Shown here: piece by piece, positions 20,656 through 54,517 of the stretch
Layout of the letters: every line of letters starts with the position of its first letter
How positions within the stretch are numbered: the stretch's first letter is position 1
Source: a virus
Lineage: Duplodnaviria; Caudoviricetes
Direction: 5' to 3' (one strand)
IMG/VR virus record: IMGVR_UViG_3300033555_000001
Span: 64,001 to 128,000 of that record
Length of the DNA stretch: 64,000 nucleotides
Translations under genes and position numbers: made by a program
Notes under the pieces: generated by a model
The model's database searches: none
Told to the model about the DNA's origin: nothing
Seen by the model: only the letters and a program-made list of their open reading frames with translations

Positions 20656-20681
20656 AGGTGACAAATAGCGTTTTGTCACCT
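20656..20681. terminator. Stem-loop ending the late operon
   Basis: AGGTGACAAA/TTTGTCACCT 10-bp stem, weak U tract. Confidence 0.55.
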
Positions 20682-20685: not shown

Positions 20686-20730
20686 ACCGTTACACTTTAA
20701 AATACACTTCTTGGTAATACGTGATATTAT
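20686..20730 (+). promoter_or_regulatory. ACCGTTACACTT box plus -10 TATTAT
   Basis: Box 20686-20697; -10 starts at 20725 (39 bp from box start). Confidence 0.75.
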
Positions 20731-20758
20731 AGCTCTGTCATCCTTATAAGGACACGCT

Positions 20759-20923
20759 ATGAACAAGCTGTATTTTGCCGGAATAATTTATTTCCTATTT
20801 TCCCTGTACAGCGCAGTTACAACCAAGAATTGGTTTGGCGTGGTGGGCTGCATTGGCATGATATTCTTCTGTGCTGCTTGCCTCCACGATCGAACAAAAC
20901 CTCCTTCACCACCAGATTACTAA
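20759..20923 (+). CDS. Small two-TM membrane protein (54 aa)
   Basis: MNKLYFAGIIYFLFSLYSAV...WFGVVGCIGMIFFCAAC; AAGGA RBS; first gene after the box promoter. Confidence 0.75.
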   Translation: MNKLYFAGIIYFLFSLYSAVTTKNWFGVVGCIGMIFFCAACLHDRTKPPSPPDY

Positions 20924-20927
20924 TATC

Positions 20928-20933
20928 TAAATA
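20928..20933 (+). promoter_or_regulatory. Late promoter box TAAATA
   Basis: Intergenic cTAAATAc before the MKLSEILNE gene. Confidence 0.65.
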
Positions 20934-20992
20934 CACCAGAATCATATTAAATCGGGTCATCTGGCGCACACATAATTCTTAAAGGTAAAAAC

Positions 20993-21358
20993 GTGAAATT
21001 ATCAGAAATTTTGAATGAAGGTTTTAAGGGCGATTGGGCTATTCTGCCTGCCACAATGACGCTATATGATAAACGCACCGTTGATATTATCCGCGCGGCC
21101 TCCGAATGGACTGAGTGCACTATTTTAGTCTGCCATAATGAAGATGACAGAATCTGTTTTGTTTCGAGTGCAGGAGATGCGTACAAATATTACGCTGGAG
21201 ATGTAGGTAAGTCTTATTCTACACACCACGATCAAACAGGTGTGTCTAAAGGTCGCTACACAATTAAAAATGTTGTGCACTTTTTTGATGGCGAAATTAA
21301 AAACAAAGTCAATGAAGTTGGATTAAAGGAAAAAGCTTCTCTGTCCGTCTTCAAATAA
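20993..21358 (+). CDS. Probable internal head protein
   Basis: MKLSEILNE leader; late box upstream. Confidence 0.6.
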   Translation: MKLSEILNEGFKGDWAILPATMTLYDKRTVDIIRAASEWTECTILVCHNEDDRICFVSSAGDAYKYYAGDVGKSYSTHHDQTGVSKGRYTIKNVVHFFDGEIKNKVNEVGLKEKASLSVFK

Positions 21359-21395
21359 TTTATATTAGGCCAATACCGCGCCAAAAGGATTACTA

Positions 21396-22535
21396 ATGAG
21401 CCAGTTCCCGGTTATTCGCACGCTGAGCGATATCAGCCCTGCTATCGAAAGCAATCATCAAATCAGAGTAAAAGTTGACGACAGCACCGGACATACTGTT
21501 GTTTGCTATATGGTGCAGGACGAGGATACTTTCTCCGGTGATTCGCCTGAGATAGAGCGGGAGTGCCGCGGTATTACTTTTGACAGCGCTGGTAATATTG
21601 CTGCCCGCACCATGCACAAGTTTTTTAATGTTGGCGAGCGGCCAGAGACCATGCCTGATCAGATTGACTGGTCAAAAGTTGATCGAATCATGGAAAAGCG
21701 TGATGGTTCCATGGTGACTCCAGTGCTGACACCACTCGGCCCGTCGCGGTTTAAGTTTAAAACTAAAAAGACTTTTACTTCTCCAGAATCAATTTGCGCG
21801 GACCAGCAGGCAGTATATCAAATTAGATATGACTGGATCGTTGACATGTTGGAGAAAGGATTGACTCCAACCTTTGAAATGACTTCGCCCCGATTTCCAA
21901 TTGTGGTAATGTACAGCGCAGACGAGCTCACACTGCTGCACATCAGAGAAATGGTATCTGGTCGGTATTTGACTGCGGAAGAAATAGTTTTTACGCACCC
22001 GCCGTTTCCAGTTGTAGAAAATATGGTTGCCCAGTTCTGCAGCGAGAGCACACCAAGTCAAGTACAGTGGGAAAAGCTCCGAGTGTTTGCCGAGACTGCC
22101 ACAGGCATGGAAGGCGTTGTTATTCAGTTTCACGGCGGTGAGATGATGAAACTCAAGACTGCTTGGTACATTAGCTTGCACCACTCGGTTGTGTTTACAC
22201 GCTGGAGAGATGTGGCTCGTACTGTGTGCGCTGATCAGGCTGACGATCTCAAAGCTGCATTTACAATGGTGGGGCGTTCAATTGAACCGATCTTGAAAGT
22301 TGAGCGTCGGATTATGAGCGAGATCTCAAATACACAAAACTCTGTAGAAGAACAGGTTAAAATCGGTCGAGCTCTTGATTGGTCGATCAAAGATATGGCA
22401 CTAGCGTTAAGAGATCATCCGCTATTTCCACTGATCATCCGAGAATTTAAGGGTCAAGAGGTAGACTACATGGAACACTATGTTAAAAACTATCTTGATG
22501 ACGGCTGGAGTTTGGAAGTAATTCCTGCTGTTTAA
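21396..22535 (+). CDS. rnlA: RNA ligase 1 (T4 Rnl1/RnlA family)
   Basis: RECRGITF, HKFFNVGE, motif I EKRDGSM, EGVV, KLKTAWY. Confidence 0.92.
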   Translation: MSQFPVIRTLSDISPAIESNHQIRVKVDDSTGHTVVCYMVQDEDTFSGDSPEIERECRGITFDSAGNIAARTMHKFFNVGERPETMPDQIDWSKVDRIMEKRDGSMVTPVLTPLGPSRFKFKTKKTFTSPESICADQQAVYQIRYDWIVDMLEKGLTPTFEMTSPRFPIVVMYSADELTLLHIREMVSGRYLTAEEIVFTHPPFPVVENMVAQFCSESTPSQVQWEKLRVFAETATGMEGVVIQFHGGEMMKLKTAWYISLHHSVVFTRWRDVARTVCADQADDLKAAFTMVGRSIEPILKVERRIMSEISNTQNSVEEQVKIGRALDWSIKDMALALRDHPLFPLIIREFKGQEVDYMEHYVKNYLDDGWSLEVIPAV

Positions 22536-22570
22536 ACTATATTCAATTTCTTTAATCATTGCAGAAAATC

Positions 22571-23017
22571 ATGAAATCTTTTTTAAAAGCGGTATTATGG
22601 GTTGTTGTTCTTTTTATCGGGGTTATTTTTGCTGCTATTTATGCACAGAAAAAATCGGACGAAGCAGGTGCTAAGAAATATAAAGAGTCTTTTGTGTACG
22701 AACGTAGTTTCAATCCAGCTGATGAAATTTATGTAACTGACTGCATGAAACAGGTCAGTTCGTATTTCTTAACCGGAAATTACATAATGGGATTTGAAAA
22801 ATATTATGTTAAAGTGAAGCGCCACAAGGATGAAGACTATATTTTAGTAGCTATTTCTGGAGCTGAACTTAAAAGATCACGTGTACCCAATGAACTTTTT
22901 ATCGCACCACGCGCTATGGAACCTCAAGCGGGATTATGTATATACCGTGAAGGTACTCAAAATCTTGTTGAGACCCATTACTCAACAGGTGCAAAATGGA
23001 TTGTCAAGCAATATTAA
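22571..23017 (+). CDS. Membrane-anchored hypothetical protein
   Basis: N-terminal TM LWVVVLFIGVIFAAIY. Confidence 0.7.
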   Translation: MKSFLKAVLWVVVLFIGVIFAAIYAQKKSDEAGAKKYKESFVYERSFNPADEIYVTDCMKQVSSYFLTGNYIMGFEKYYVKVKRHKDEDYILVAISGAELKRSRVPNELFIAPRAMEPQAGLCIYREGTQNLVETHYSTGAKWIVKQY

Positions 23018-23134
23018 AATGATTCCACTACAACGGGTTGTTAAAAAAAAAGAAATCAACAGGAGTTAACACCAGAAAGCTGTTAATAGAAAACGGACAC
23101 ATATTTAACCAGTAGAACTAAGGAAAAATAAGCG

Positions 23135-23404
23135 GTGCGACAGTCAAAATATAGAAGTCTTCAAGAGGCCCTGGCACAAGCGTTCTGGGGATTTATTGTA
23201 TCTTTGGCGCTGCAAATTTTTCTGTCTCACAAATACAACATGCAGATCTCCCTCATGGATAATCTGCACATCACATTCCTGTTCGCGTTCGTGGGCATGG
23301 TTAAAAGCTACTTTGTTCGCCGTTATATGTCTAAGGGCGATCAAAAAGAGCAAATCGCAGAAGTAGATAAGTCGTTACACTCTTCTGACACCGTTACACT
23401 TTAA
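23135..23404 (+). CDS. Small two-TM phage membrane protein
   Basis: SLQEALAQAFWGFIVSLALQ...FAFVGMVKSYFVRR; AAGGA RBS. Confidence 0.75.
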   Translation: MRQSKYRSLQEALAQAFWGFIVSLALQIFLSHKYNMQISLMDNLHITFLFAFVGMVKSYFVRRYMSKGDQKEQIAEVDKSLHSSDTVTL

Positions 23405-23435
23405 AGTGTACTTTCATCCTGAACTGGTATATTAT
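23390..23435 (+). promoter_or_regulatory. ACCGTTACACTT box, AGTGTACT -35 and TATTAT -10
   Basis: Box 23390; TGTACT 23407-N17-TATTAT 23430; palindrome TACACTTTAAAGTGTA 23395-23410; second GTTACAC at 23374. Confidence 0.85.
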
Positions 23436-23471
23436 TGTCTCATACGCTGAGAACATGATCAGGAGATAAAA

Positions 23472-23903
23472 TTGAAATCAAAAATCACAGAGCAATCAGT
23501 ATTTCAGATTGAAACCAGTATTGCTCAAATCTCTGCAGCTCGCGCTAAAAATACAGATCCGGCCACGCGCGAGTTCCAGCGCAAGACACTTGAAAATTTA
23601 GAAATCAGGCTGCAGTTCGCTGTCAAAGATCGCAACGCAAAAGCTGAAGAATATTTGCGCGAACATGGCGGTGCAGATTGGTGGCAAGCAATTGCTAAAC
23701 TCTATCCTATTACCTTCAGCGAAGAGCTCTGCAAACACATAGTAACAAGTAAAGCACGAGATTGGGAAGATGAGTTGTGCTGGGAATTTGCTGAAAAATA
23801 CGAGGCAGTTGAAAAAGTGCAGCAGTTAATTGTGTGGCTTAATCAAAATCGTGAACGTGGATTTGGCGATCGCGATGCGGATCTGGTCAAACTTGCGCAG
23901 TAA
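23472..23903 (+). CDS. Hypothetical early protein
   Basis: TTG start after AGGAG; first gene after the promoter. Confidence 0.8.
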   Translation: MKSKITEQSVFQIETSIAQISAARAKNTDPATREFQRKTLENLEIRLQFAVKDRNAKAEEYLREHGGADWWQAIAKLYPITFSEELCKHIVTSKARDWEDELCWEFAEKYEAVEKVQQLIVWLNQNRERGFGDRDADLVKLAQ

Positions 23904-23915
23904 CCGGAGAAGAAA

Positions 23916-24134
23916 ATGTATTCGACAAAAGTGGCGTTTGTATTTGTTGTCAATAACAGCAACAGCAAAATTGTCGTGCACGCGCACGATGAAGAAACTG
24001 CGTTTGAGCTAGCGCAGGAACAAGTTGGTGCGGACGGTGGATTTCGTTATAGCCATTGCGTAAGTGGGCCTGGCAACGATGAAAAGTTCGCTGCACAAAC
24101 TGCTCAATTGGAGAACAGCAATGAAACACGGTAA
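23916..24134 (+). CDS. Hypothetical protein
   Basis: GGAG RBS. Confidence 0.75.
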   Translation: MYSTKVAFVFVVNNSNSKIVVHAHDEETAFELAQEQVGADGGFRYSHCVSGPGNDEKFAAQTAQLENSNETR

Positions 24135-24237
24135 ATTTCTGGCTGCGCTCGCACTAATCAGCGCGCTGTGGATTGGGCTGTACTTTCTCGGAATTAACGT
24201 GGTTTCAACAGTTTTTAAGACTTTGTTAGGATCGTAA
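24121..24237 (+). CDS. Small single-TM peptide (38 aa)
   Basis: MKHGKFLAALALISALWIGLYFLGINVV...; GGAG RBS; ends at the terminator. Confidence 0.65.
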   Translation: MKHGKFLAALALISALWIGLYFLGINVVSTVFKTLLGS

Positions 24238-24239
24238 AG

Positions 24240-24274
24240 TTAAGAGGGGTCAGCAGATCCCTCTTAATTCTTTT
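24240..24274 (+). terminator. Intrinsic terminator (possibly bidirectional)
   Basis: TTAAGAGGG/CCCTCTTAA stem then TTCTTTT. Confidence 0.8.
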
Positions 24275-24395
24275 ACTAAGCGCTCTACAGATTAAAAATT
24301 CGGTGTGAGCCAGGCAGTTCAGATGACTCTACGTGTAGAACTGTTCAACACACGCTGTCTCTAGAGACCGTTTAGTCAAAGTTATACTGGAATGA

Positions 24396-24424
24396 AATTA
24401 AGGGAGCCATTGGCTCCCTTAATT
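24396..24424 (-). terminator. Terminator hairpin downstream of phoH
   Basis: AATTAAGGGAGCCA-T-TGGCTCCCTTAATT near-perfect palindrome. Confidence 0.8.
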
Positions 24425-24443
24425 ATTTTAGTGCTCTAAGAGA

Positions 24444-25229
24444 TTAAGCCGTGCGAGTACCACTGCTAAACGAATGGCGTGTCCTGCTTACTTGACCGCC
24501 TTTAGTTTGCTGCTCGTCTGGACCGTCCAAATGAGTTAACAACTCACGAACCAGTGCTGAACGCTGAATATCGCTGTGGCCAAACTCAATCACATTGATA
24601 TTTTTCGACCGACCGCGCAAGCGTCGAGTTAACCACTCCAAACCGTTTTCCGGCAATCCTCGCAAATCACTCTGGGTTACGTCGCCGTTGACCACAAACG
24701 TTGAATACTCACCGGCTCGGGTGACAAACAGTTTGATCTGTTCGATGGTGGTATTCTGAGCTTCATCAAGAATTACATACGCATTGTTAAACGTGCGACC
24801 GCGCATATAGGCAAGAGGTGCAAATTCAATTTTACCAGTCTCAAGTAACTTTTTAGCCATGGTAACACCAACAAGCTCCTCAAGTGCGTCAAGCAGCGGA
24901 CGCAGATATGGGCTAATCTTTTCCTCAAACGTGCCAGGTAAGAAACCAAGATTTTCACCGGCTTCGCATACTGGGCGAGTCAGAACAATTTTTGAGACGT
25001 CGTTTGCTAGAAGTTTCTCGACGCCTACGGCCATTGCGAGAAAAGATTTACCTGAGCCAGCCGGCCCGGTACCTATGGTAAGTGCGGATCCACGAAGAGA
25101 TTCAAGATAGAACTCCTGTGAAATTGACTTTGCTTGAAGTTGCGTTTTAAGGCGTATTACTTTTGTACCCTCTTGGTTAATTGGCTGCGGATATTTTTGC
25201 TTGGTGGTTGTGGCGAGCTTACGACCCAT
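24444..25229 (-). CDS. phoH: PhoH-like ATPase
   Basis: GTGPAGSGKS, LTRP, LGFLPG, PLAYMRGRTF, ILDEAQN, NGDVTQSD; AGGAGG RBS. Confidence 0.97.
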   Translation of the reverse strand: MGRKLATTTKQKYPQPINQEGTKVIRLKTQLQAKSISQEFYLESLRGSALTIGTGPAGSGKSFLAMAVGVEKLLANDVSKIVLTRPVCEAGENLGFLPGTFEEKISPYLRPLLDALEELVGVTMAKKLLETGKIEFAPLAYMRGRTFNNAYVILDEAQNTTIEQIKLFVTRAGEYSTFVVNGDVTQSDLRGLPENGLEWLTRRLRGRSKNINVIEFGHSDIQRSALVRELLTHLDGPDEQQTKGGQVSRTRHSFSSGTRTA

Positions 25230-25431
25230 ACTATCCTCCTAAGGACTGGGTTCACAAACGGCGTCTTCCTAGAGATCTTTCTCCAGGTGACGAACGGGTT
25301 CAACCAGAGGGGCGTCAGGAAAAAGCTGCGACCACAGAATACGGTCGCTCAAAGTTAGGAGTAAGCCCATGATTGTCTCGAGGACAGCCGCGACGTGATG
25401 CGAGGCTGGGGAGTTTGGTTTTAACAAGATA

Positions 25432-25821
25432 TTAGTCTTGCTTTTGCAGGACAAAATTAATCCACTCTACTACTCCAACCGACCGGTTGTGTAGCAAGCT
25501 TTCACCAGCAACAATACAATCCAGCAAATAACTTGCCAGTCGTACGTGGTCACCGTCGCTGAGCGCCTTTAGCGCGTCTTTGACAGCCGTGGTGGTGGAC
25601 TCATCGCCATAATTAACAGGATTTTCAAAATGTAGGTCTACACTCTTCAAACCATTCTTGAAGAACCCAGCCACGCGGGCCAGGATAAATAGCTGATACG
25701 GATTAGTGATTTTACCAGCGGTAACTATTTCCTGCAGCGTCAAGTCAATTAATTGAGTTGAATGGCCAGGAACACCGTAAATAAATTCGTTTTCGTTAAT
25801 GATTGTTTGATGTAGGTTCAT
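25432..25821 (-). CDS. Hypothetical late protein
   Basis: Probable start MNLHQTIINE at 25821, downstream of TAAATA 25847-25852 (minus strand). Confidence 0.7.
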   Translation of the reverse strand: MNLHQTIINENEFIYGVPGHSTQLIDLTLQEIVTAGKITNPYQLFILARVAGFFKNGLKSVDLHFENPVNYGDESTTTAVKDALKALSDGDHVRLASYLLDCIVAGESLLHNRSVGVVEWINFVLQKQD

Positions 25822-25846
25822 AATAGGCTCTGTGTTCTTGATTATA

Positions 25847-25852
25847 TATTTA
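25847..25852 (-). promoter_or_regulatory. Late promoter box TAAATA
   Basis: gcTAAATA context, as at 8186 and 9182. Confidence 0.6.
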
Positions 25853-25902
25853 GCCACTCTTGCCGGTTCGTGTTACTACTGTATGTCTTTAGGAGAAACA
25901 AA

Positions 25903-26121
25903 ATGTCTGAATCTTGGGTTGACACACCACAGGTTGAAATACCAGCACCACATACGTGGGACACGCTGTCCCTTAATAATTTAATTGATGTAAAAAATCA
26001 GTTATTGAACAAACAAAGTATGGCAAGAGGCGCACCAGCCTACGTTAGTGCTATTAACGATTCACTGGCGCAATTAGAGCAGATTATTTCAGAAAAATCT
26101 AGCGATTCGCGCGGCGCTTAG
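25903..26121 (+). CDS. Hypothetical protein
   Basis: AGGAG RBS, MSESWVD start. Confidence 0.75.
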   Translation: MSESWVDTPQVEIPAPHTWDTLSLNNLIDVKNQLLNKQSMARGAPAYVSAINDSLAQLEQIISEKSSDSRGA

Positions 26122-26725
26122 CGGCAGATTTTGTAACTGCGGGTCCGTCGATATACTCTACCACGCGATCTACAAGGCCATATTTCAAACACTCGGCTGG
26201 GGTTAGATACCGGTCGCTTGGAGAAAATAACACGTCCATGATTTGCTTTTTAGACATTGTAGAGTGCTTTAAAAAGTGCTTTACAAATCTTTCCTCGAGC
26301 TGTGCGTACGCAGCGTGTACTGCAATAAGCTCGTGTTGCTTGCCGGAAAAATAACCACTGAACTGGTGCGCCATTACCTCGGCGTTTTTAGTAAGAGTTC
26401 TGAGACCCCTAGTGCCACCGGAAACAAGCAGCACTCCCATTGACGCCACAGTGCCAATACCTACCGTGCTAATCGGCAGTCTAGAAGTTTCCATGAGATC
26501 GATAATTGAAAAGCCCTCGCCAGTTTCACCGCCCACAGTGTTGATCAATATGGTCAGCGGGTCACTTGAGTTACGGGACAGATTGGATTTTAAGATGAAC
26601 TCACAGGCCGCATAAGAAGTATCTATATCAATCTCTCCAAAGAGCATGTGGCACCCAAGGGACTCTAAACTGTGCATATCGTACGGCAATTGGTCATCTA
26701 TCATTGAATCTGCTGTTTTACGCAT
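26099..26725 (-). CDS. clpP: ClpP-like serine protease subunit
   Basis: LFGEID, INTVGG, VASMG (Ser), MAHQ (His), SDRYLTP-E-LKYGLVD (Asp). Confidence 0.92.
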   Translation of the reverse strand: MRKTADSMIDDQLPYDMHSLESLGCHMLFGEIDIDTSYAACEFILKSNLSRNSSDPLTILINTVGGETGEGFSIIDLMETSRLPISTVGIGTVASMGVLLVSGGTRGLRTLTKNAEVMAHQFSGYFSGKQHELIAVHAAYAQLEERFVKHFLKHSTMSKKQIMDVLFSPSDRYLTPAECLKYGLVDRVVEYIDGPAVTKSAAKRRANR

Positions 26726-26748
26726 GGCGTCTCCTGGTGTGTACAGAC

Positions 26749-26754
26749 TATTTA
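26749..26754 (-). promoter_or_regulatory. Late promoter box TAAATA upstream of clpP
   Basis: gTAAATAg on the minus strand, then AGGAG RBS. Confidence 0.7.
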
Positions 26755-26850
26755 CTGCGGCTAAAACGGTACATGTTAGAGTAATCCTGGTTCTAATTGT
26801 GCTGAACCTGAATAATTATAGGCAGTAAATTCTGATATTACAGCTGGCTC

Positions 26851-26856
26851 TAAATA
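26851..26856 (+). promoter_or_regulatory. Late promoter box TAAATA
   Basis: Intergenic cTAAATAg. Confidence 0.75.
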
Positions 26857-26929
26857 GCAGTGCTCTGCCCTTTAAAGCTAGCAGTGTCAGAGCGCTCTTG
26901 TTTCAGCTAGCGGAACTTAAGGAGTCACA

Positions 26930-28510
26930 ATGTATTCTCTTTTCTGGCGCTCGCCAGCTCTACCATTTCTACAAAAGAACACGGCAATTGCTGTGCCAGC
27001 AGGCTCAATTGTTTCAAACGCGGCGTCACTGCGTTTTACCGGCAAAGGCGCATCAAACTACGGCAAAGTGCAGCAAGAAAATCTCTTGCGGTTGCTTGAA
27101 AATTTTGCTGGGCCAACAGCGCCAGAGTATTCAACCGTTGGCCAGGTTTGGTATGACACAGATGTCACAACGCTTAAAGTAATGGTGCGTTCTGCTCCCG
27201 AGCCTGATGCGTGGCGCTCTCTTAATTCAACACAAATTACTGGTATTGGTGAGGGTCCGCCAAGTCCAGCAAGTTTAGGTGATACTTGGTTTTCGCGAAC
27301 TGGCTCAGCTTCAGGCATTCAGTACGTGTACACGGGAATTGGGCGCTATCCACAAACAGGCAATGAAATCGGCGGGTGGGAGCAAGTATTTCCAACTGTT
27401 GAACGCGCTGCCGGCCGCGAAGAATATGACTACATGCTGGGTCTGTTAAAAACACTGATTGGAGACACGTCTGAATCGGGCGGCAGTGGTGCGTTTAATC
27501 GGGCAATTGCCAATCTTACTGACTTTGATTTGCTTGATGCAAGTTTGGTAGAAAAATTTAACAGCCTCTTGCCTCTTGACAGAAACGTCCTCAGCTCTGG
27601 CGCAAACAGCAGCCTCTTAAAAGTAGACCCAAACTCAAACGACTGGGATTTTTTACTGAGCGCTGCAAAGTACGCAATTAACAGGCTAGACGTGCCGCTT
27701 GGTTATCTTACTGACGTGAGCCCAGTGCCGTTTGTCACTGACGGTCGTGCACCACCGTCAGCTCTTAAGGAGCTGGATCCAATTAACCCACAGTATCCTG
27801 ATGCACTGCGTTTATCCAGCAGAAAAACCGGTACTATTGCGCTTGGGCGGTACTACCAAGAAACGGTAAACGTCTTGCGCACGGCTGAACGAGTCAGATA
27901 CTTGTTAAAAGGCATGCAAGGAGCCAGTTTTTCTGACACTGTAGAGCCCACCTCTGTTGGCGCGTTTACTTATTCTGGTCAGTTTACAACTCCGGTAACT
28001 CACGGGCTGTTGTACCGGTTTGACCAGGCCAGTCGCGCACGGTTCTTTTTTGCAGGTGGCGCTCTCACATTTGCTGGTACACACGCACCAGGTTCAGCGC
28101 CAACTGCTGCTGACATTGACCTTAAAACTATACTGGAAACTCACGGCAGAATTAGATTTACTGCTGATAGAACTTTTATACTTGACGGTGCTAACTCGCC
28201 AGCGCTTGCTGTACAGCCAATAAACTTAGGATTCAATGATCTGACCCTGGGATCAACGGTACTTGCGGTGTTTAACGTTGGTGCTGCCACAATCAGATTC
28301 TCTGCAAACCTCGTTGATGGTGTGGAGTCTGGGATTGAGGATGGCGTTAACCTGGTAATTGAAATCACCACAACGGCGGGAACCACTGGCGTAACAACCG
28401 TTGAGTGCGGCTATATTAGCGATGGTGAACTCTTTAACAGCCCGCCAGTTCGCGTGTATCCACAACCGCTGGCTCTTACTGCAACTGACAGGACTGGTCA
28501 GTTCGCATAA
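26930..28510 (+). CDS. Virion structural (baseplate/tail-associated) protein
   Basis: GKG-SNYG-VQQENLLRLLENFA-P-VGQVWYD N-terminal motif seen in large-myophage structural proteins; late box; AAGGAG. Confidence 0.7.
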   Translation: MYSLFWRSPALPFLQKNTAIAVPAGSIVSNAASLRFTGKGASNYGKVQQENLLRLLENFAGPTAPEYSTVGQVWYDTDVTTLKVMVRSAPEPDAWRSLNSTQITGIGEGPPSPASLGDTWFSRTGSASGIQYVYTGIGRYPQTGNEIGGWEQVFPTVERAAGREEYDYMLGLLKTLIGDTSESGGSGAFNRAIANLTDFDLLDASLVEKFNSLLPLDRNVLSSGANSSLLKVDPNSNDWDFLLSAAKYAINRLDVPLGYLTDVSPVPFVTDGRAPPSALKELDPINPQYPDALRLSSRKTGTIALGRYYQETVNVLRTAERVRYLLKGMQGASFSDTVEPTSVGAFTYSGQFTTPVTHGLLYRFDQASRARFFFAGGALTFAGTHAPGSAPTAADIDLKTILETHGRIRFTADRTFILDGANSPALAVQPINLGFNDLTLGSTVLAVFNVGAATIRFSANLVDGVESGIEDGVNLVIEITTTAGTTGVTTVECGYISDGELFNSPPVRVYPQPLALTATDRTGQFA

Positions 28511-28528
28511 TCATCCTTATCTCCTGAG

Positions 28529-28557
28529 TGTACTTTAGTGCTGACTTATCTTAAAAT
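28529..28557 (+). promoter_or_regulatory. sigma70-type promoter TGTACT-N17-TAAAAT
   Basis: Same AGTGTAC -35 as 23407, 42049 and 54489. Confidence 0.75.
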
Positions 28558-28589
28558 CAGCATGACTGCACACAAAGGAGATATATCTT

Positions 28590-28877
28590 ATGAAACGTGT
28601 TCCAATTATCAGCGTTGGCCAAGTTTACTTACACGGCGATTTAAATCAGTATTTGGTTGTTACTAAATCGACTGGCGGAGACGTTCAGTTCAGGGGGATT
28701 GGCTTTAGTGGTATGAACGAAGCTGAAGTATTTCTTGGACGATTCCTGCCAGTAGATCCCTGCGATCTCTCAGACGACGAGTGTATTGAGCTAGTAAACC
28801 TGTTACCAGAGCAATACGACACCCTGTTAATGGGTTGGATACACGGCTGGACTGGTGAGGATGAGGACGAATTGTGA
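28590..28877 (+). CDS. Hypothetical protein
   Basis: AAGGAG RBS. Confidence 0.8.
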   Translation: MKRVPIISVGQVYLHGDLNQYLVVTKSTGGDVQFRGIGFSGMNEAEVFLGRFLPVDPCDLSDDECIELVNLLPEQYDTLLMGWIHGWTGEDEDEL

Positions 28878-29035
28878 TTAGTGCAGTCTCAATTTTTGTT
28901 CTAGCTGCGCACTCCGCCGTTATTGCGACCTGTGCCGCACGTTGCGGCCATGACACATTTGCTGCAGTGGCGTTTTACGTATCGGCCGCAGTGTTTAGCC
29001 TGTCCAGCGCTGCTGGAATAGCAGGAATTCTTTAG
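28874..29035 (+). CDS. Small hydrophobic protein (53 aa)
   Basis: GTGA overlap; two hydrophobic segments. Confidence 0.55.
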   Translation: MISAVSIFVLAAHSAVIATCAARCGHDTFAAVAFYVSAAVFSLSSAAGIAGIL

Positions 29036-29043
29036 GAAAAAAT

Positions 29044-29544: not shown

Positions 29545-29593
29545 CACAGTACCACCAAAAATAAAATAAGGCTCTTTGAGCAGAAAAGAAATC

Positions 29594-30700: not shown

Positions 30701-30714
30701 TTATTAGATCAAAT

Positions 30715-30752
30715 AAAAACGCCTGAACTATTTTACTAGTTCAGGCGTTTTT
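30715..30752. terminator. Bidirectional intrinsic terminator
   Basis: AAAAACGCCTGAACTA/TAGTTCAGGCGTTTTT 16-bp stem between convergent genes. Confidence 0.9.
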
Positions 30753-30769
30753 AGTATTGAGAAAAAGAA

Positions 30770-31246
30770 TCAGGGACTTGGCAGTTTCTTGGGATTAGAC
30801 AGTACGTTCTCAGCGCCATATTGATTTCTTAAAGCAAGAGCAAGATTTGCTTCAAGCCTTTTGGCTTCTTTTACGGTCAAATTTGTCTGCAGCACTGCCA
30901 TCTCAACAGTGATGGCAGTCACGCCCTGCAAGTACGCCTCATCAAAAATTTTAATAAAGCAACCAGTAAAACTAACCCTATTGATACTGGAAATATGCTT
31001 TTGAAGCCGAATCTTTGGCTTACCCGTGGTTTCACCAGCGTAATAAAGCTCTCTATTAGAACCGCCGTGTAAAGTTAATTTAAGCTGGTATACAGAGCTT
31101 GTATTCTCTATTACTAAATGCTCGCCGATAATTTTACGCCCGACAGGAATGCCCATCATATAATCAATCCATGGTGATTGGAAAGATGTTAGGCGTTGCG
31201 GTATCTTACTGGGCTGATCACGTACAATTTTTAAATTTCTTTTCAT
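30770..31246 (-). CDS. Divergent GIY-YIG-like nuclease domain protein
   Basis: SVYQL...LYYAGET...IRLQKH...RLEANL; TATAAT (minus strand) at 31281-31286. Confidence 0.55.
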   Translation of the reverse strand: MKRNLKIVRDQPSKIPQRLTSFQSPWIDYMMGIPVGRKIIGEHLVIENTSSVYQLKLTLHGGSNRELYYAGETTGKPKIRLQKHISSINRVSFTGCFIKIFDEAYLQGVTAITVEMAVLQTNLTVKEAKRLEANLALALRNQYGAENVLSNPKKLPSP

Positions 31247-31303
31247 TGCCGTACTCTATTAGTTAACTCGGCATAGCTCTATTATACTGTTTCAGCGCTG
31301 GCA

Positions 31304-31349
31304 ACCGTTACACTTTTCTTGGATCATTAACCCGAAATGGTGTTAAGAT
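31304..31349 (+). promoter_or_regulatory. ACCGTTACACTT box plus extended -10 TG-T-TAAGAT
   Basis: Box 31304; -10 at 31344 (40 bp). Confidence 0.7.
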
Positions 31350-31383
31350 GTCTCTATTGCAGCTAACAAATACTGAGAAAATC

Positions 31384-31683
31384 ATGCAAATAGCAGAACG
31401 AATTAATTCTAAACTGTTCGCGTTTGACAGTGTAAAGCGCCAGTTTAAAGCTCGTCATGATGTGCTGCGTATCATGGGGCACAAGCCCTTTGCTCGGCTC
31501 TATTCTGAGAATGCGCGCATTTCAGAAATTGGTTTTTTCTTAGCATCACAGCGCACCGGCGTAGCACAGTGCTTTTTATTTGTGCGTGTACTTCGCAGTG
31601 GTGATCGTGTAACTGGTTGGTTGTTTAAGCCACTGCTCAACACTGGTGCAACTGGCGTAGAGTTAATTATTACTAACGATTAA
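31384..31683 (+). CDS. Hypothetical early protein
   Basis: Start moved from 31348 to 31384 because the predicted -10 overlaps ATG 31348. Confidence 0.7.
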   Translation: MQIAERINSKLFAFDSVKRQFKARHDVLRIMGHKPFARLYSENARISEIGFFLASQRTGVAQCFLFVRVLRSGDRVTGWLFKPLLNTGATGVELIITND

Positions 31684-31718
31684 ACCTGTGATAAGATGCC
31701 TGAACACACGGAGGACTC

Positions 31719-32999
31719 ATGCTTTTAAATGTGGCTAATCTTCAGAATTATTATCGGCTCGGATACAACGTCTTGCTTGAGGGTGAAGCGGGCGTGGGTA
31801 AAACCGCGGTAATTTCTCAGGTGTTTGAAGGGCTGAACTGGAAGTATTTCAGCGCAAGTACACTTGACCCATGGGTAGATTTTGTCGGCATTCCACGCCA
31901 CGTAAAAGATGAAAAACTAGGTGATGTGATTGACCTAGTGCGGCCGCGATTTATTGTTGAAGATAATGTTGAGGCTATTTTCTTGGATGAGCTGAACCGC
32001 GCGCCGGACAAAGTGCTCAACGCGGTGATGGAGCTTATTCAGTTTAAAAGTATCAACGGTCGTAAACTGCATAACTTAAAAGTAATCTGGGCTGCCATTA
32101 ACCCAGCGGACGATCAGGGTGATTACACCGTATCGCACCTGGACAAGGCACTGCGTGATCGGTTCCACGTGCAAATTCAGGTTCCGTATAAATTAGACGA
32201 GAATTATTTCAAGACAAAGTATCCTCAGACTGCTGATGCGTTTATTGCTTGGTGGTGCGATTTACCAACAGCAGTGCAGAAAACAGTATCGCCACGGCGG
32301 TTGGATTACGCGGCGGCGGCCCATGAGAACGGCTGTTTACTCTCGGACTTTTTGCCGGCTGAATCTAACATAGGCAAGCTTAAAAAGGCAATCAAGGCTA
32401 TTCCATTTCAGGAACAGCTCTCAGAATTACTGAGCAAAAACGATGCCACCTCTGCTGGTAATTTCCTGGCCGAAATTAACCACGCCACAAAACTGCTCTT
32501 GCTGATCAATCAAAAAGATCCTACTGCGGTTCAGTTTTATAAGAAGTTCGGCGCTGTGTTGCCAAAAGAGCTGGTAAACGCGCTGGCGCCGCAGATTAGC
32601 GCTTTTGAATCCGGCGCGCGAATTACTACCTTCAATGAACTACTGCCAGTGCTGAATGGAAAAGCTGGTGAAGTTGCTATTACGCAAGAGATTAATAGCG
32701 TTGCGTTTGCGTACTCAAATGAAACACTGCACGATGCAGTAAAACGCGAGGTTGCCAGCCCCTCCATCGGGCTTAGAAAATTAGTCAACCATATGACTCT
32801 TGTAATGTCTAGAGCACCCGAGCCAGTATTGCGGGCTGCAATGTTTAAGCCAGGTACTTGCGAGCGGTCTAATTTTGCCGCATTGGCGCTGTTTATTGCT
32901 GACGCTGACAAAACTTTTGCCCTGTTTTCTAGAGAGGATCGCAAGAAAATTAACTCACACACGTATGCCTTGAAGTGCGCCGCGTCAAAGTGGATGTAA
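31719..32999 (+). CDS. MoxR-like AAA+ ATPase
   Basis: VLLEGEAGVGKT, IFLDELNRA, AAINP, LDKALRDRF; GGAGG RBS. Confidence 0.9.
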   Translation: MLLNVANLQNYYRLGYNVLLEGEAGVGKTAVISQVFEGLNWKYFSASTLDPWVDFVGIPRHVKDEKLGDVIDLVRPRFIVEDNVEAIFLDELNRAPDKVLNAVMELIQFKSINGRKLHNLKVIWAAINPADDQGDYTVSHLDKALRDRFHVQIQVPYKLDENYFKTKYPQTADAFIAWWCDLPTAVQKTVSPRRLDYAAAAHENGCLLSDFLPAESNIGKLKKAIKAIPFQEQLSELLSKNDATSAGNFLAEINHATKLLLLINQKDPTAVQFYKKFGAVLPKELVNALAPQISAFESGARITTFNELLPVLNGKAGEVAITQEINSVAFAYSNETLHDAVKREVASPSIGLRKLVNHMTLVMSRAPEPVLRAAMFKPGTCERSNFAALALFIADADKTFALFSREDRKKINSHTYALKCAASKWM

Positions 33000-33000
33000 T

Positions 33001-34323
33001 ATGAAGAGCACATTTAACTCAAGTGACACTGTAGCTCTTACCAGAGAAGAACTGCTTAAAATCAGTTTGGACTTGGAGCAGTATCACCGGGTATTCGACG
33101 CATTTTGGAACATGAGCCAGGTATTTTTTACTACTCGCGCGAATATCCGCACTGCAGCCGTGTGCTTTCCGCCGCATCAAAAGCCTCACATGCTGCTTAA
33201 CCGTAAATTCTGGGACTCACTAGACAACAACGGCCAGCTGTTTGTGATCTTGCATGAGTGCCTACACGTTATGTTGGACCATGGGCTCAGGAACGCACGT
33301 CATGTCACAGGAGCTACCGCACGCAAAATCAACATTGCTCAAGACATTACCATTAACGAGATGATTGCCGGGTTGTTTGGTTTTCCGCGCGGCTTGCTGC
33401 TAGGCTGGGAAAAATACTGCTGGATTGACACATGTTTTAAGAACCCAGAAACTATTGAGCACAATCAAGTATTTGAGTACTACCTTAGAAAGCTGATTGA
33501 ACAGGGTGCAGATCCTGAGGTGAGCACCGTTGATGATCACCGCGGATCCGGCGAGGATAGCGGTCCTGTTGATGATGAGGCCAACACTGCTGATGGCAGT
33601 CAAGAGGTTGAAAATAGCGATGATGGCGATCCAGATGACGCAGCGCAGGAGCTCGGTACTTACCTGTCTGCCGACGAGCTTGAGGCTCTACTGAAGCGCA
33701 CAGGTCCTGAGGGCGGCGCAGGTATTAAACACTCGCCATTTAGAACGGTGCTAGAAAAAATGGTGCCACCACGGTTAGATTTCAACACCATTGTGCAGCG
33801 CCTTAAACGCTCAGCAAAATCAAAAGAACAGCGCGCTGACCAGTCTTTTACTCGTGAAGACAGGCGCTTTAATTCTCTGCCCCGCAGCCTAAGCTTGCCA
33901 GGTAGTATTGATCGCAAACCAAATAACAACAAGCTTATTACGGCCGTGTTCTTTGACGTGTCTGGGTCGTGCATGCAACACATAAACGCATTCTCTGCAG
34001 TTAAAGATGCCTTTGAAAAAGAGACAAAGTTATTTGAAATGCGTGCGTACACCTTTGATACTGCGATTGCACCGGTAGATTTATCTGGCGATATTAGGAT
34101 TGGCGGTGGCACAGCATTTCATATTATTGAAGCAGAGTGCCAGCGAATAATGATGGAAGATGGCCGGTATCCTGATTGCGTGGTTGTTATTACCGATGGT
34201 TACGGCACTGCAGTTCACCCCGCTTACCCTGGTCGGTGGGTCTGGTTGCTCACGCCTGATGCAACTACCAAATTTATTCATAGTGCGTCCGGCGCTTGGG
34301 CAATCTCAAAGGTTACTTTTTAA
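33001..34323 (+). CDS. DUF2201-type metallopeptidase-like + VWA-like protein
   Basis: LHECLH (HEXXH), NIAQDITIN, FDVSGS MIDAS-like, GGGTAF, VITDGY. Confidence 0.88.
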   Translation: MKSTFNSSDTVALTREELLKISLDLEQYHRVFDAFWNMSQVFFTTRANIRTAAVCFPPHQKPHMLLNRKFWDSLDNNGQLFVILHECLHVMLDHGLRNARHVTGATARKINIAQDITINEMIAGLFGFPRGLLLGWEKYCWIDTCFKNPETIEHNQVFEYYLRKLIEQGADPEVSTVDDHRGSGEDSGPVDDEANTADGSQEVENSDDGDPDDAAQELGTYLSADELEALLKRTGPEGGAGIKHSPFRTVLEKMVPPRLDFNTIVQRLKRSAKSKEQRADQSFTREDRRFNSLPRSLSLPGSIDRKPNNNKLITAVFFDVSGSCMQHINAFSAVKDAFEKETKLFEMRAYTFDTAIAPVDLSGDIRIGGGTAFHIIEAECQRIMMEDGRYPDCVVVITDGYGTAVHPAYPGRWVWLLTPDATTKFIHSASGAWAISKVTF

Positions 34324-34333
34324 TCGCAGCCTT

Positions 34334-34397
34334 GTTACACTTTTCAAGAAACCGTTACACTTCTCTAGTTTTCTCTGGCCGGATCCTGAGATATAAT
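34334..34397 (+). promoter_or_regulatory. Tandem GTTACACTT boxes plus -10 TATAAT
   Basis: GTTACACTT at 34334 and ACCGTTACACTT at 34351; TATAAT at 34392 (41 bp). Confidence 0.8.
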
Positions 34398-34427
34398 TCT
34401 TCTTGTCAACAAGAGAGGAATTAAAGA

Positions 34428-35426
34428 ATGTCTAAATCATGCGCCGTACAATTCAATCAAACCGCAGGTCGCTGGGAAGCGATTTTCGCCGGTAAAGTTC
34501 TCTCCTCAAGCACGGATGTTGTTGGTGGTAAAGACTATATTATTCGCGTTATTGAGGGCGGCTTCAGCAAGAAAGCTCGCGTGCACAGTGTTACTAAATG
34601 CCAAATTATTGAATCCCAAATAACACCAAGTGCTGGTATTGAAACCTCCGCCCCAGTTGCTGTTGAAGTCTGCGCAGTTGAAAAAGAGTTCTTAATTAAC
34701 GAACGCTTCCAGATCATGGAAGACTATGTTGACATGGTTGCTGCACGCAGCCTTGCATCTACCATTGTTACTGGCGAGGGCGGCCTTGGTAAGACGTACA
34801 CCGTGATGAAAGCGCTGCGAAACAGCGGATTAAAAGACATTACTAAAATGGACATTGGCGCCAAATTTGACGGCCAGCGTGGTTATGTGGTTGTAAAGGG
34901 CTACAGTACTCCTAAGGGTTTGTTCCGCACTCTCTACGAGAATCGCAATCAAATCATTGTGTTTGATGATTGCGACAGCGTGCTCAGAGATCCAGTCGCC
35001 GTAAACATTCTAAAAGCCGCGCTTGATTCGTATGAAGAGCGTGTGGTAACGTGGAACGCAGAGAGCTGGAGCAACAGCGAAGATTTGCAAAAGAGCTTTG
35101 AGTTCACTGGTGGTGTGATCTTTATCTCAAACATGCCAAAAGCCAAAGTGCCGCAAGCAATTCGCTCACGCGCCATGTGTGCCGATGTTGGCATGACACG
35201 TGATGAGGTAATTGAGCGCATGCAGGTAATTGTTAACTCTGAAGAGTTCATGCCTGAGTTTGACGCTGAAATGAAAGAGGAAGCACTACAATTTGTTACT
35301 GAACACGCTTACCACCCGCTTATTACCGAACTTAACCTGCGATCCCTTGTAAACGTGATTAAGGCACGAGCTGCAAAGCCTGATTCTTGGAAGCGGCTGG
35401 GATTATATTCAATGGCCAACGGCTGA
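34428..35426 (+). CDS. AAA-family ATPase with N-terminal extension
   Basis: TGEGGLGKT, IIVFDDCDS, IFISN, AIRSR. Confidence 0.85.
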   Translation: MSKSCAVQFNQTAGRWEAIFAGKVLSSSTDVVGGKDYIIRVIEGGFSKKARVHSVTKCQIIESQITPSAGIETSAPVAVEVCAVEKEFLINERFQIMEDYVDMVAARSLASTIVTGEGGLGKTYTVMKALRNSGLKDITKMDIGAKFDGQRGYVVVKGYSTPKGLFRTLYENRNQIIVFDDCDSVLRDPVAVNILKAALDSYEERVVTWNAESWSNSEDLQKSFEFTGGVIFISNMPKAKVPQAIRSRAMCADVGMTRDEVIERMQVIVNSEEFMPEFDAEMKEEALQFVTEHAYHPLITELNLRSLVNVIKARAAKPDSWKRLGLYSMANG

Positions 35427-35440
35427 TGTTTGGAGGAACT

Positions 35441-35659
35441 ATGAATCTTTCTAGAAGCCAGTTAAAAGATCATGCACTGCACTTGAAGTGCACAACCTGC
35501 GGCCATGAACAGACCGTTATTCCGGCCGCAGGAATTGTGGAAGAAGACGGCGACATCTGTTTTTACTTTGGTTCTTCAGCTCACTTCTGCGATGAATGCG
35601 ATGGTGGTGTGTTAGACGGAATGCGGGTGACCCACTGCGATTTTAAAAAGAGGAACTGA
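35441..35659 (+). CDS. Small Zn-ribbon protein
   Basis: CTTCG...CDECD; GGAGG RBS. Confidence 0.75.
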   Translation: MNLSRSQLKDHALHLKCTTCGHEQTVIPAAGIVEEDGDICFYFGSSAHFCDECDGGVLDGMRVTHCDFKKRN

Positions 35660-35660
35660 T

Positions 35661-36146
35661 ATGCTCTATACCCCTCAAGAACCGTGTGAGCCTGGCACCC
35701 CTGGCAAGTGCCCGCTCTCTCACGATGCAGTCACCCACATGCCTCCCGGCAAGTATTTCATCGGAGATCCTGGACTGGTACTTGATAGCCTATGGGACGA
35801 GGTACTTGAAGCAACTCAAGTTTTTGATCAACACCGAACTTCACTCGCTGGATTCGAGCTTTGGGGCGCACGCACAGCTCAGTCCTTCAAACACGTCTTC
35901 ACAGATCAAAATGATGCCGAGTATTATGTCTATGATGGTGTACTTGGCTGTGTTCCTATTGAGCTCATCGAAGATCCGCACGGAGAGGATTTTGGCACGG
36001 TTGTCGATGCTCCTCTTGGGCTAGAAATATCAGTCTTTAAGGGCGTGTTTAGATTTGGCGATATTGTTATCAACACTAATCTGCCTCAAGAAGACAGTAA
36101 TAATGGGCACGACCTTGATCCAGAGGACGACCGGTTGGTGCCGTAG
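35661..36146 (+). CDS. Hypothetical phage protein
   Basis: PGKYFIGDPGLV, GVLGCVP; GAGGA RBS. Confidence 0.8.
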   Translation: MLYTPQEPCEPGTPGKCPLSHDAVTHMPPGKYFIGDPGLVLDSLWDEVLEATQVFDQHRTSLAGFELWGARTAQSFKHVFTDQNDAEYYVYDGVLGCVPIELIEDPHGEDFGTVVDAPLGLEISVFKGVFRFGDIVINTNLPQEDSNNGHDLDPEDDRLVP

Positions 36147-36170
36147 AGGGGCAATAAATATCCTAAACAC

Positions 36171-36602
36171 TTGGAGAATATTTTGCCTGAAAAATTGCGG
36201 AACAGCCTTATTCACAAAGCGGCGGCGGGTTTATTAGTTATTGGTTATCAATTAAAAGAACTCCTAGATGCCTATGATTTTTTTGCTGAGCGCTATCCGC
36301 CCGAATCGCTGTCAGACGAAATGGTGCTGCGAGATCTAGAAATTTCTATTATTGCGCTTGGCTATTTGCCGCATCAAGTAGCTGCTACAGTAACTGCGTG
36401 GCAGAAAAACGAGGAGCAAGAGCTCAGCGTTATGGGGTTTGAAGTCAATGTGCTCAACGAGCTAGCAGTGCACTTGCATACTATTTCAAGCTTCATGACT
36501 ACTCGCGACGTTAAAATAGATTACAAACCGCTGTTGATCAATGAAGCTTTTACGGCACTTAGAGTTGCAAATAGACTAATTGCGCACTCCAGAACTGCGT
36601 AG
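36171..36602 (+). CDS. Hypothetical protein
   Basis: TTG start 10 nt after TAAATA 36155-36160. Confidence 0.7.
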   Translation: MENILPEKLRNSLIHKAAAGLLVIGYQLKELLDAYDFFAERYPPESLSDEMVLRDLEISIIALGYLPHQVAATVTAWQKNEEQELSVMGFEVNVLNELAVHLHTISSFMTTRDVKIDYKPLLINEAFTALRVANRLIAHSRTA

Positions 36603-36677
36603 ACCTGAATTCTCTTAAACCATTTACTGCTGCAAGTTGTTAAAATTAATCTTTCAATAACCTACTGAGAGATACAA

Positions 36678-36971
36678 ATGGCGCGCGCTAAAACTGGGTA
36701 CCCACGGGGCAGGCAACGCAATGGTGAAACCCGGCCAACGATCCCAAAAAACGTGCGGCGCTGCGCGCGTCGTGCTGAACGTATCGCTGCTGAACCAAAT
36801 TACGCTGGGAAATTAGCAGAAAATATGCGCACCTGGCGTGCTAATAATCCAGAGCGCGCGAAAGAGATCTCAAGGAATGCTTATCTTCGCAAGAAAAATT
36901 GGGACACCTGTGGCAATAAGTTTGGGGTAGCTGGTGACTTCACCGTTAAACGAAAAGCTAAAAAGGCTTAA
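36678..36971 (+). CDS. Highly basic small protein
   Basis: Arg/Lys-rich; RTWRANNPER motif. Confidence 0.7.
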   Translation: MARAKTGYPRGRQRNGETRPTIPKNVRRCARRAERIAAEPNYAGKLAENMRTWRANNPERAKEISRNAYLRKKNWDTCGNKFGVAGDFTVKRKAKKA

Positions 36972-37001
36972 TTAATTTCTTGCACCTAAATCAAAAATAA
37001 A

Positions 37002-37790
37002 ATGTCAACAGATAAAACCACGCTAGGTGACCGCATTAAATCGTATGAGGCCGCCTCTACCTCTAGGTGTGCCGTTAAAGGCGAACCAATTATTGCCAGA
37101 TTAGACGGCCGCGCCTTTCATACTTTTACTCAAGGGCTAGAGCGGCCATATGACGCACGGCTCTCAGCGCTTATGAGCGAGACGCTCAAGGCTCTGGTAG
37201 AAAATACTGGGGCAAAGATTGGCTACCAACAAAGCGATGAAATATCGCTGGTTTGGTATGTACCCGCTGATTCTACAACGCAGTACCCGCACGGCGGTCG
37301 CTTTCAAAAATTAGACAGCTTGCTTGCCGCCTACGCAAGCTCGTACTTTAACAGCAGAATTCCAAAGTTGCTGCCTGAGAAAAGTGGAACACTGGCACTC
37401 TTTGATGCGCGCACCTTTTCAGTACCTGATTTGCAGACAGCGTATGAGTGCCTGCTCTGGAGGCAGCGAGATTCTTTGAAAAATTCAATCAGCATGGCGG
37501 CTCAATCAGTGTGTAGCCACCGTGAGCTACAGGGTCTTAACGGCCTGCAAATGAAGACCCTAATGGCGGAACGAGGTTTAGAATACAGCCGTCTTCCAGA
37601 GTTCTTTAAATTAGGAGTTTTTGCACAGCGCACAAAGGTGAGTAGACGGCTCTCTGTAGAAGAACTAGCAAAATTGCCGGAGTGTGCCAGGACGGATGGT
37701 CTGGTAGTGCGGCCGGTGACTTCATTAGTGCATATTAATCTAGAGCATCTTGCAGATCCAATAGAGCAGCTATTTGGGTTGCAATTGTAA
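37002..37790 (+). CDS. thg1: tRNA(His) guanylyltransferase Thg1-like 3'-5' polymerase
   Basis: LGDRIKSYE, RLDGRAFH, QSDEISL, GRFQK, FDAR, WRQRD-KNSI. Confidence 0.95.
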   Translation: MSTDKTTLGDRIKSYEAASTSRCAVKGEPIIARLDGRAFHTFTQGLERPYDARLSALMSETLKALVENTGAKIGYQQSDEISLVWYVPADSTTQYPHGGRFQKLDSLLAAYASSYFNSRIPKLLPEKSGTLALFDARTFSVPDLQTAYECLLWRQRDSLKNSISMAAQSVCSHRELQGLNGLQMKTLMAERGLEYSRLPEFFKLGVFAQRTKVSRRLSVEELAKLPECARTDGLVVRPVTSLVHINLEHLADPIEQLFGLQL

Positions 37791-37848
37791 CGGACTAAAA
37801 CCACCGTTACAATTTAGTCAAGCACTATTTCCTGGTTCATGATATTAT
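37783..37848 (+). promoter_or_regulatory. ACCGTTACAATT box (in an inverted repeat) plus -10 TATTAT
   Basis: AATTGTAACGG 37783/CCGTTACAATT 37804; -10 at 37843 (40 bp); TGATATTAT(A/G)GCTCTGT shared with the 20722 region. Confidence 0.8.
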
Positions 37849-37877: not shown

Positions 37878-37967
37878 ATGTTAAAAGTTTTAAAACTCCA
37901 GGCCGAAATTTTTGTGATTGATGTGCAACTGGCTGTTAACTCGTTTCTGACTTTTATCTATTTGTAA
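37878..37967 (+). CDS. Very small hydrophobic peptide (29 aa)
   Basis: MLKVLKLQAEIFVIDVQLAVNSFLTFIYL; AGGGA RBS; first ORF after the box promoter. Confidence 0.5.
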   Translation: MLKVLKLQAEIFVIDVQLAVNSFLTFIYL

Positions 37968-37968
37968 C

Positions 37969-54488: not shown

Positions 54489-54517
54489 TGTACATGCCTC
54501 GACTTATACAGTATAAT
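54489..54517 (+). promoter_or_regulatory. Promoter TGTACA-N17-TATAAT
   Basis: Same class as 42049. Confidence 0.85.

Follow-up and report, generated by a model that had tools for sequence, protein, structure and literature searches.

What replaces MotA and AsiA in the T4-related phages that lack them, and what marks the promoters that such a replacement would serve? To our knowledge, T4 is the only T4-related phage whose early-to-middle switch is understood, and most of its relatives are without both proteins. The question is raised by a 64,000-nucleotide stretch of phage DNA, hereafter the window, which covers bases 64001-128000 of the 310,728-bp IMG/VR virus record IMGVR_UViG_3300033555_000001 (estimated completeness 87%). 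A first-pass annotation made from the letters of the window had noticed five promoters with a common box, ACCGTTACA, placed 39-41 bp upstream of the -10 hexamer, and had proposed that they form the regulon of an undescribed activator or phage-modified polymerase element. Here we find that the box defines a promoter class throughout the genome and in related phages, and we consider it probable that it serves as an upstream activator site working from one face of the helix on the host RNA polymerase.

The exact 9-mer ACCGTTACA occurs five times in the window, always on the + strand (20686, 23390, 31304, 34351 and 37803), against a mean of 0.36 copies in shuffled versions of the window, none of 100 of which reached five. 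Copies with one mismatch are at chance level (12 versus 11.3 expected), and the signal is therefore carried by the exact ones. The -10-like hexamers (20725 TATTAT, 23430 TATTAT, 31344 TAAGAT, 34392 TATAAT and 37843 TATTAT) lie at offsets of 39, 40, 40, 41 and 40 bp from their boxes, with a Shine-Dalgarno site and a start codon 25-35 nt beyond each hexamer. The additional half-sites first reported were recovered as well, namely direct repeats at 23374 and 34334, an inverted TGTAAC at 37786, and the palindrome TACACTTTAAAGTGTA at 23395-23410, which is composed of the 3' end of box 2 and a -35-like TGTACT. The string TGATATTAT(A/G)GCTCTGT is indeed common to two of the promoters. A scan for canonical TTGACA-17-TATAAT promoters gave no enrichment in the region (33 versus 28.3) and did not flag the five box promoters, whose parts are as follows.

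20686..20694, + strand: box 1, ACCGTTACA, GTTACA core near -48; exact match, position weight matrix (PWM) composite score 41.7 against a control maximum of 15
20722..20730, + strand: extended -10 of promoter 1, TGaTATTAT, offset 39, without a -35-like hexamer
20759..20923, + strand: first gene of unit 1, 54 amino acids (aa), function not assigned; Shine-Dalgarno site, and ATG 23 nt past the predicted start zone
23374..23379, + strand: direct second GTTACA half-site of promoter 2, near -68
23390..23398, + strand: box 2, exact match and PWM match; the G003 orthologue of the downstream gene retains a box promoter
23407..23412, + strand: -35-like TGTACT of promoter 2, 17 bp upstream of the -10
23430..23435, + strand: -10 of promoter 2, TATTAT, offset 40
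23472..23903, + strand: first gene of unit 2, 143 aa, TTG start, no family match
31304..31312, + strand: box 3, exact match and PWM match
31341..31349, + strand: extended -10 of promoter 3, TGtTAAGAT (weak hexamer), offset 40
31384..34323, + strand: unit 3, comprising a 99-aa gene, a MoxR-like AAA+ ATPase (31719-32999) and a DUF2201_N protein (33001-34323)
34334..34339, + strand: direct second GTTACA half-site of promoter 4, near -70, invariant across all five phages compared below
34351..34359, + strand: box 4, exact match and PWM match; GTTACA core invariant across the five phages
34392..34397, + strand: -10 of promoter 4, TATAAT, offset 41
34428..35426, + strand: first gene of unit 4, a 332-aa AAA+ protein with a 60-aa N-terminal domain
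37786..37794, - strand: inverted half-site of promoter 5, TCCGTTACA, near -69 (TGTAAC at 37786)
37803..37811, + strand: box 5, exact match and PWM match
37840..37848, + strand: extended -10 of promoter 5, TGaTATTAT, offset 40
37878..38277, + strand: unit 5, a 29-aa open reading frame (ORF) followed by a 102-aa ORF, functions not assigned

Immediately upstream of box 1, a hairpin (GGTGACAAA...TTTGTCACC) occupies window positions 20657-20680. Promoter 1 therefore follows a terminator-like stem, an order of elements like that of the promoter-stem-loop cassettes of T4-type phages.

The same design recurs across the whole genome, where exact copies of the box number 18 against 3 for the reversed control and 16 of the 18 sit at promoters. 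A genome-wide motif scan had been suggested as a check by the first-pass annotation; run with a two-block PWM, it returned 22-23 promoters scoring above 20, while the control maximum was 15. All but one of them (21) lie on the + strand, in step with the genes. With the start site predicted 7 nt past the -10, the first base of the GTTACA core falls at -48 to -50 in 21 of 23 promoters; in one it falls at -60. Spacers from GTTACA to a good -10 show a sharp peak at 30-32 nt (23 versus 0 in the control), and the two outliers, single promoters with spacers of 20 nt (genome 245776) and 42 nt (genome 58692), are each one helical turn off; between these values nothing rises above the control. Information content is concentrated in two conserved blocks, ACCGTTACAcTTTa and tgaTATaAT followed by ctc, with about 20 unconserved bases between them, so the promoters are not merely recent copies of one another. 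GTTACA is exact in 19 of 21 aligned promoters, and the next bases are c or a and then T. The A/T-rich stretch behind the box spans only -43 to -38, and ACCGTTACA itself has 44% G+C. As first noted for the window, a good -35 is missing: none of the 22 promoters comes within one mismatch of TTGACA at that position, where 7 of the 22 carry a TGTACA-like hexamer. A TGn extended -10 is present in 12 of the 22.

Second half-sites are another regular feature of the class. In 14 of 22 promoters a further GTTACA or TGTAAC lies no more than 31 nt upstream. The total is 15 such sites, where chance predicts 0.32 and 2000 trials gave at most 3. Most of them lie close to 10 or 20 bp from the main box (12 of 16, p = 0.0036). 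The direct repeats have periods of 10, 14, 18, 19, 20, 20, 21 and 30 bp, eight partner sites are inverted, and half-sites in both orientations reach up to -78. A tandem direct pair with a 10-bp period is clear in one case in the phage (genome 248265/248275). The description of the units as 'small-gene operons' captures most of the genes behind the box promoters, which are small and of unassigned function. It leaves out, in the window, the MoxR-like AAA+ ATPase, the DUF2201-type protein and the 332-aa AAA+ protein, and genome-wide the list includes AAA+ ATPases, a SprT-like protein, an HNH protein and an RNA ligase.

Two further observations come from outside the window. Right after the -10 and near the predicted start, about eight of the box promoters (genome 5782, 248321, 250079, 263919, 266708 and others) carry CTCATCGAC(TA), which may be a conserved 5' leader or start-region signal. 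In addition, an inverted box, TGTAACGGT, at genome 252040-252048 (- strand) lies directly against the TGTACA hexamer in the promoter of a gene for an ATP-dependent DNA ligase, an arrangement different from that of the 22 standard promoters.

Each of four IMG/VR contigs (G001-G004) has an orthologue of the protein at 34428-35426, with 67-71% identity, and two or three GTTACA boxes upstream of its gene. The distance from the proximal box to the -10 is 30-31 nt in three of them and 42 nt in G003. In the five-phage alignment of this upstream region both hexamers and the -10 are invariant, while the mean column identity is 58%. The nearly complete genome of G003 (336 kb, 45% G+C) shows its own version of the design, in which GTTACAgATT often precedes TGTACA, N17 and TATGAT. 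There, too, the spacer histogram has its peak at 30-32 nt (14 versus 2 in the control), a box promoter is retained at all six testable orthologous first genes, and tandem box pairs 9-12 bp apart occur at least four times. The whole genome of Ralstonia phage RsoM2USA shows neither box enrichment nor the promoter architecture, and its late motif is ATAAATA. Among 63 jumbo-phage loci found through the MoxR-like ATPase, the architecture appears in only two, those of G001 and G002, which were already known as relatives. Scanning viral contigs for a box together with a -10 was uninformative, giving only single chance matches per contig, and in the literature the matches listed for the 9-mer were all unrelated primer sequences. 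These comparisons establish the element, with its fixed phase and its repetition, as conserved in a five-member phage clade. Since box and spacing are kept amid diverged flanks but are missing in RsoM2USA and the other loci, the design is specific to this small clade and under selection there.

The box promoters are one of at least four predicted promoter forms in the phage. The motif CTAAATA has about 45 sites genome-wide, mostly intergenic and about 30 nt upstream of start codons, and a gp55-like gene lies outside the window at genome 169752-170378; together these indicate a T4-type late class and the use of the host polymerase throughout infection. Intergenic TGTACA-N16-18-TATAAT promoters without a box number about 15 in the genome. 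The TGTACA hexamer differs from the canonical -35, and the promoters of this class in the window precede nucleotide-metabolism and replication genes. Another form is TGTTACAAT, which contains the GTTACA of the box and is likely an extended -10. The sites of these other forms are listed here.

Window 8185, 9181, 20927 and 26850, + strand: CTAAATA late motif
Window 25853 and 38922, - strand: CTAAATA late motif
Window 28529-28557, 38951-38980, 42049-42077 and 54489-54517: box-less TGTAC(A/T)-N17/18-TATAAT-like promoters
Window 56403-56411: TGTTACAAT upstream of the primase gene
Genome 192479, 193257, 227688, 231831 and 265124: further TGTTACAAT sites

The phage itself comes from an assembly of an ice metagenome, and no RNA sequencing run was found to contain it. 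Its replication genes are of the T4 type (family B DNA polymerase, topoisomerase II, DnaB-like helicase and primase), and the best database relative of its polymerase is that of RsoM2USA (43.7% identity), which together identify it as an uncultured T4-related jumbo phage. A megablast search of the region against a phage collection found no match, and Photo_RC (psbA) was absent from the phage genomes searched, which thus give no cyanophage sign. A 408-aa protein at window 17178-18404 has an ice-binding-like domain (PF11999, E = 2e-42). Outside the window, at genome 39404-40429 and 45652-46803, are homologues of T4 gp42 (dCMP hydroxymethylase family, E = 3e-22) and of beta-glucosyltransferase (E = 2e-40), and the DNA of the phage is probably hypermodified at cytosine. 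Such modification would favor a factor adapted to DNA of this kind.

Following from these features, we propose that a sequence-specific DNA-binding activator docks at the box, with its GTTACA core and A/T-rich 3' flank. Bound near -49, or in single promoters near -38 or -60 on the same helix face, this protein would help the host sigma70-type RNA polymerase at promoters that have a good -10, often extended by TGn, and no canonical -35. Additional copies of the activator would bind at the extra half-sites, some 10 or 20 bp farther upstream. The resulting pre-late regulon would comprise about 23 promoters, five of them in the window, and would be separate from the T4-like late class. The binding of a protein, its activating effect and the positions of the start sites are what we infer from the sequence. 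As to the nature of the protein, we see roughly even odds between a phage-encoded functional analogue of T4 MotA and a host response regulator of the OmpR/RpaB family. Tentatively, the former would be an activator of a new family that recognizes GTTACA boxes in DNA which probably contains glucosyl-hydroxymethyl-cytosine, acts in a class I-like manner from -49 as MotA's analogue, and switches on the middle regulon of a new clade of T4-related jumbo phages. Such a protein could in addition shut down the TGTTACAAT promoters, whose -10 is formed by the box.

Several points weigh against this reading. Searches of this phage's genome for MotA_activ, MotCF and AsiA (PF09114, PF09158 and PF09010) gave no match at E <= 10, and searches of the five phage genomes for Sigma70_r4, Trans_reg_C, LytTR (PF04397) and AP2 gave none either. 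Pfam screens of the 150 proteins conserved with G003 yielded enzymes and structural proteins and no transcription-factor domain among the matches listed, which in two of the screens covered 25 of 28 and 25 of 32 families. A promoter with an extended -10 can be active with no activator present, the half-sites are more variable in orientation and spacing than those of well-studied dimeric activators, and activation and repression are not separable from sequence alone. Beyond these points, Sigma70_r2 found only a weak gp55-like match in the five genomes, and ten further proteins, picked as basic or conserved, showed no transcription-factor domain in a Pfam screen. The proposed activator regulon is upheld in part, as a promoter class with its box on one helix face, its half-sites and its conservation in relatives, while no phage-encoded activator was found for it. 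The number of conserved proteins that are missing from RsoM2USA is 100, and this clade-specific set leaves ample room for an unrecognized factor.

Three individual candidates were set aside. A 216-aa basic protein at genome 267491-268141, behind a box-less promoter, has no family match, a poor Atlas model and a low-complexity tail. A 210-aa protein at window 54574-55206 matches phrog_600 only and has no relative in the PDB. The 332-aa AAA+ protein (34428-35426) had been picked because its own promoter carries two to three boxes in all five phages. Its body is a generic AAA+ module; its N-terminal 60 residues (34428-34625) are modeled with a pLDDT of 86 as a domain of three strands, two helices and one strand, without a significant fold match among solved structures (best Z 4.5; an AP2 domain at Z 3.4, rank 20), so the model lends no support to DNA binding.

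Who reads the box, and to what effect, can be weighed against the features described above. A host winged-helix response regulator of the OmpR/RpaB family, which would make pre-late transcription depend on a host two-component system, matches the core sequence and its position about as well as the undescribed phage factor first proposed, and we regard it as a possible, still tentative, form of the activator. The OmpR/HLR1 half-site resembles the phage box in both respects (PMC5438342, PMC6525291), G003 has several tandem pairs 9-12 bp apart, and the lack of Trans_reg_C in the phages, like the lack of transcription-factor domains among the listed matches of the 150 conserved proteins, also speaks for it. 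Most phage boxes, however, are lone half-sites with no conservation 10 bp upstream, the second sites are inverted in half of the cases, and neither the OmpR nor the HLR1 motif contains the conserved 5' ACC. Modified cytosines may, by inference, hinder host factors, and a 6-mer match to one among many known motifs is weak evidence. It is also conceivable, but unlikely, that the polymerase itself reads the box without a separate activator, through its alpha C-terminal domain in the manner of an UP element or in a phage-modified form. The stretch from -52 to -38 does overlap the UP-element zone, an A/T-rich tract follows the box, and no activator was found; yet UP elements are established to be A/T-rich whereas the box contains G and C, half-sites repeat in both orientations up to -78, the box of single promoters shifts by whole helical turns, and no homologue of Alt, ModA or ModB was found in the tested part of T4.

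The remaining explanations place the box in other roles. Multiple half-sites could nucleate a repressive complex, and a protein bound to the GTTACA that forms the -10 of TGTTACAAT promoters would block the polymerase; a later-made phage protein might thus use the boxes as shut-off operators to silence early promoters. We think this quite improbable, as the main site is not part of the core promoter and a strict helical phase relative to the -10 typically goes with activation. It is very unlikely that the box instead belongs to a second, upstream promoter as its -10-like hexamer (TACAcT or TACAaT, with G at -14). Hexamer position 6 is T in most of the 22 boxes (consensus ACCGTTACAcTTT) and TGTTACAAT is likely an extended -10 elsewhere in the genome, but G003 and other relatives usually have GTTACAgA, without the essential final T, and a 40-bp spacing is not expected between independent promoters. 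Least probable of all, and disfavored, is the passive spread of one promoter cassette by duplication or recombination, with a box that lacks any role of its own: several promoters outside the window resemble one another from the box to about +15, yet the spacer from box to -10 is unconserved, and GTTACA and its position persist in phages whose flanking DNA has diverged.

If the box is an activator site, this clade offers a clean promoter design for finding what replaces MotA and AsiA. The replacement could be a new phage activator, or it could be a captured host two-component regulator that ties phage development to the physiological state of the host. The element also aids the annotation of transcription units in uncultured 300-kb phages.

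A close functional parallel to these promoters is the middle class of T4, which is driven by MotA and AsiA through 'sigma appropriation'. In both, a T4-related phage uses the host polymerase at promoters with a sigma70-type -10 and no canonical -35, and a phage-specific box marks a pre-late class beside a gp55-type late class. The T4 MotA box is TGCTTtA, centered at about -30 and 12 +/-1 bp from the -10. As first noted, the phage box differs from it in sequence and position, being GTTACA at -49, 30-32 bp before the -10 and repeated as half-sites, and in contrast to T4 the present genome has no MotA or AsiA homologue. Several classes of predicted promoters have also been described for the Rak2-like jumbo phages CBB and GAP32 (PMC5259590). 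Like the phage studied here, these have a sigma70-like class, a class with a divergent -35, and a T4-like late class (ATAAATA) accompanied by a gp55-like gene (PMC5259590). CBB has a TGAAACG -35 and its own sigma70-like factor, with no -49 box described (PMC5259590); unlike CBB, the phage here has no match to sigma70 region 4.

In sequence, the box resembles the half-sites of OmpR (ompF/ompC) and RpaB. For OmpR of E. coli the motif is KWWGTTACAT, or GTTACATTTTGTTACAT in its tandem form (PMC5438342), and the HLR1 element of RpaB is (G/T)TTACA(T/A)(T/A), repeated with a 10-bp period (PMC6525291); the phage box reads GTTACA(c/a)TTT at -49 to -40. Activation is the effect of HLR1 sites whose center lies about 50 nt upstream, and cyanophage genomes have been reported to carry HLR1 (PMC6525291). 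The phage core, at -49 +/-1 from the predicted start, matches the activating position of OmpR and RpaB sites (end near -40 or center near -50), and weak -35 elements are common to both, as is a tendency to 10-bp phasing (PMC5438342, PMC6525291), with one clear tandem pair of that period in this phage and at least four pairs 9-12 bp apart in G003. Unlike them, most phage boxes stand as single half-sites or are paired with a site that is inverted or 18-21 bp distant, they carry the conserved 5' ACC, and no Trans_reg_C domain is found in the five phages. LytTR regulons (PlnC/PlnD, AgrA) offer a further likeness, with 9-bp repeats directly upstream of the -35, a better-conserved proximal repeat and a 12-bp spacer that also occurs in some phage promoters, and the plantaricin consensus TACGTTAAT has a central CGTTA in common with the phage box (PMC2714321). 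The LytTR spacer is strictly 12-13 bp, whereas phage spacing is variable, at 18-21 bp, with inverted copies, and the five phages have no LytTR domain. The box further differs from an UP element, an A/T-rich tract from -60 to -40 contacted by the alpha C-terminal domain, by its G+C content and by an A/T-rich flank confined to -43 to -38. With an upstream site kept on one face of the helix at spacers of 20, 30-32 and 42 nt, its overall layout is that of a generic class I-type activator-dependent promoter.

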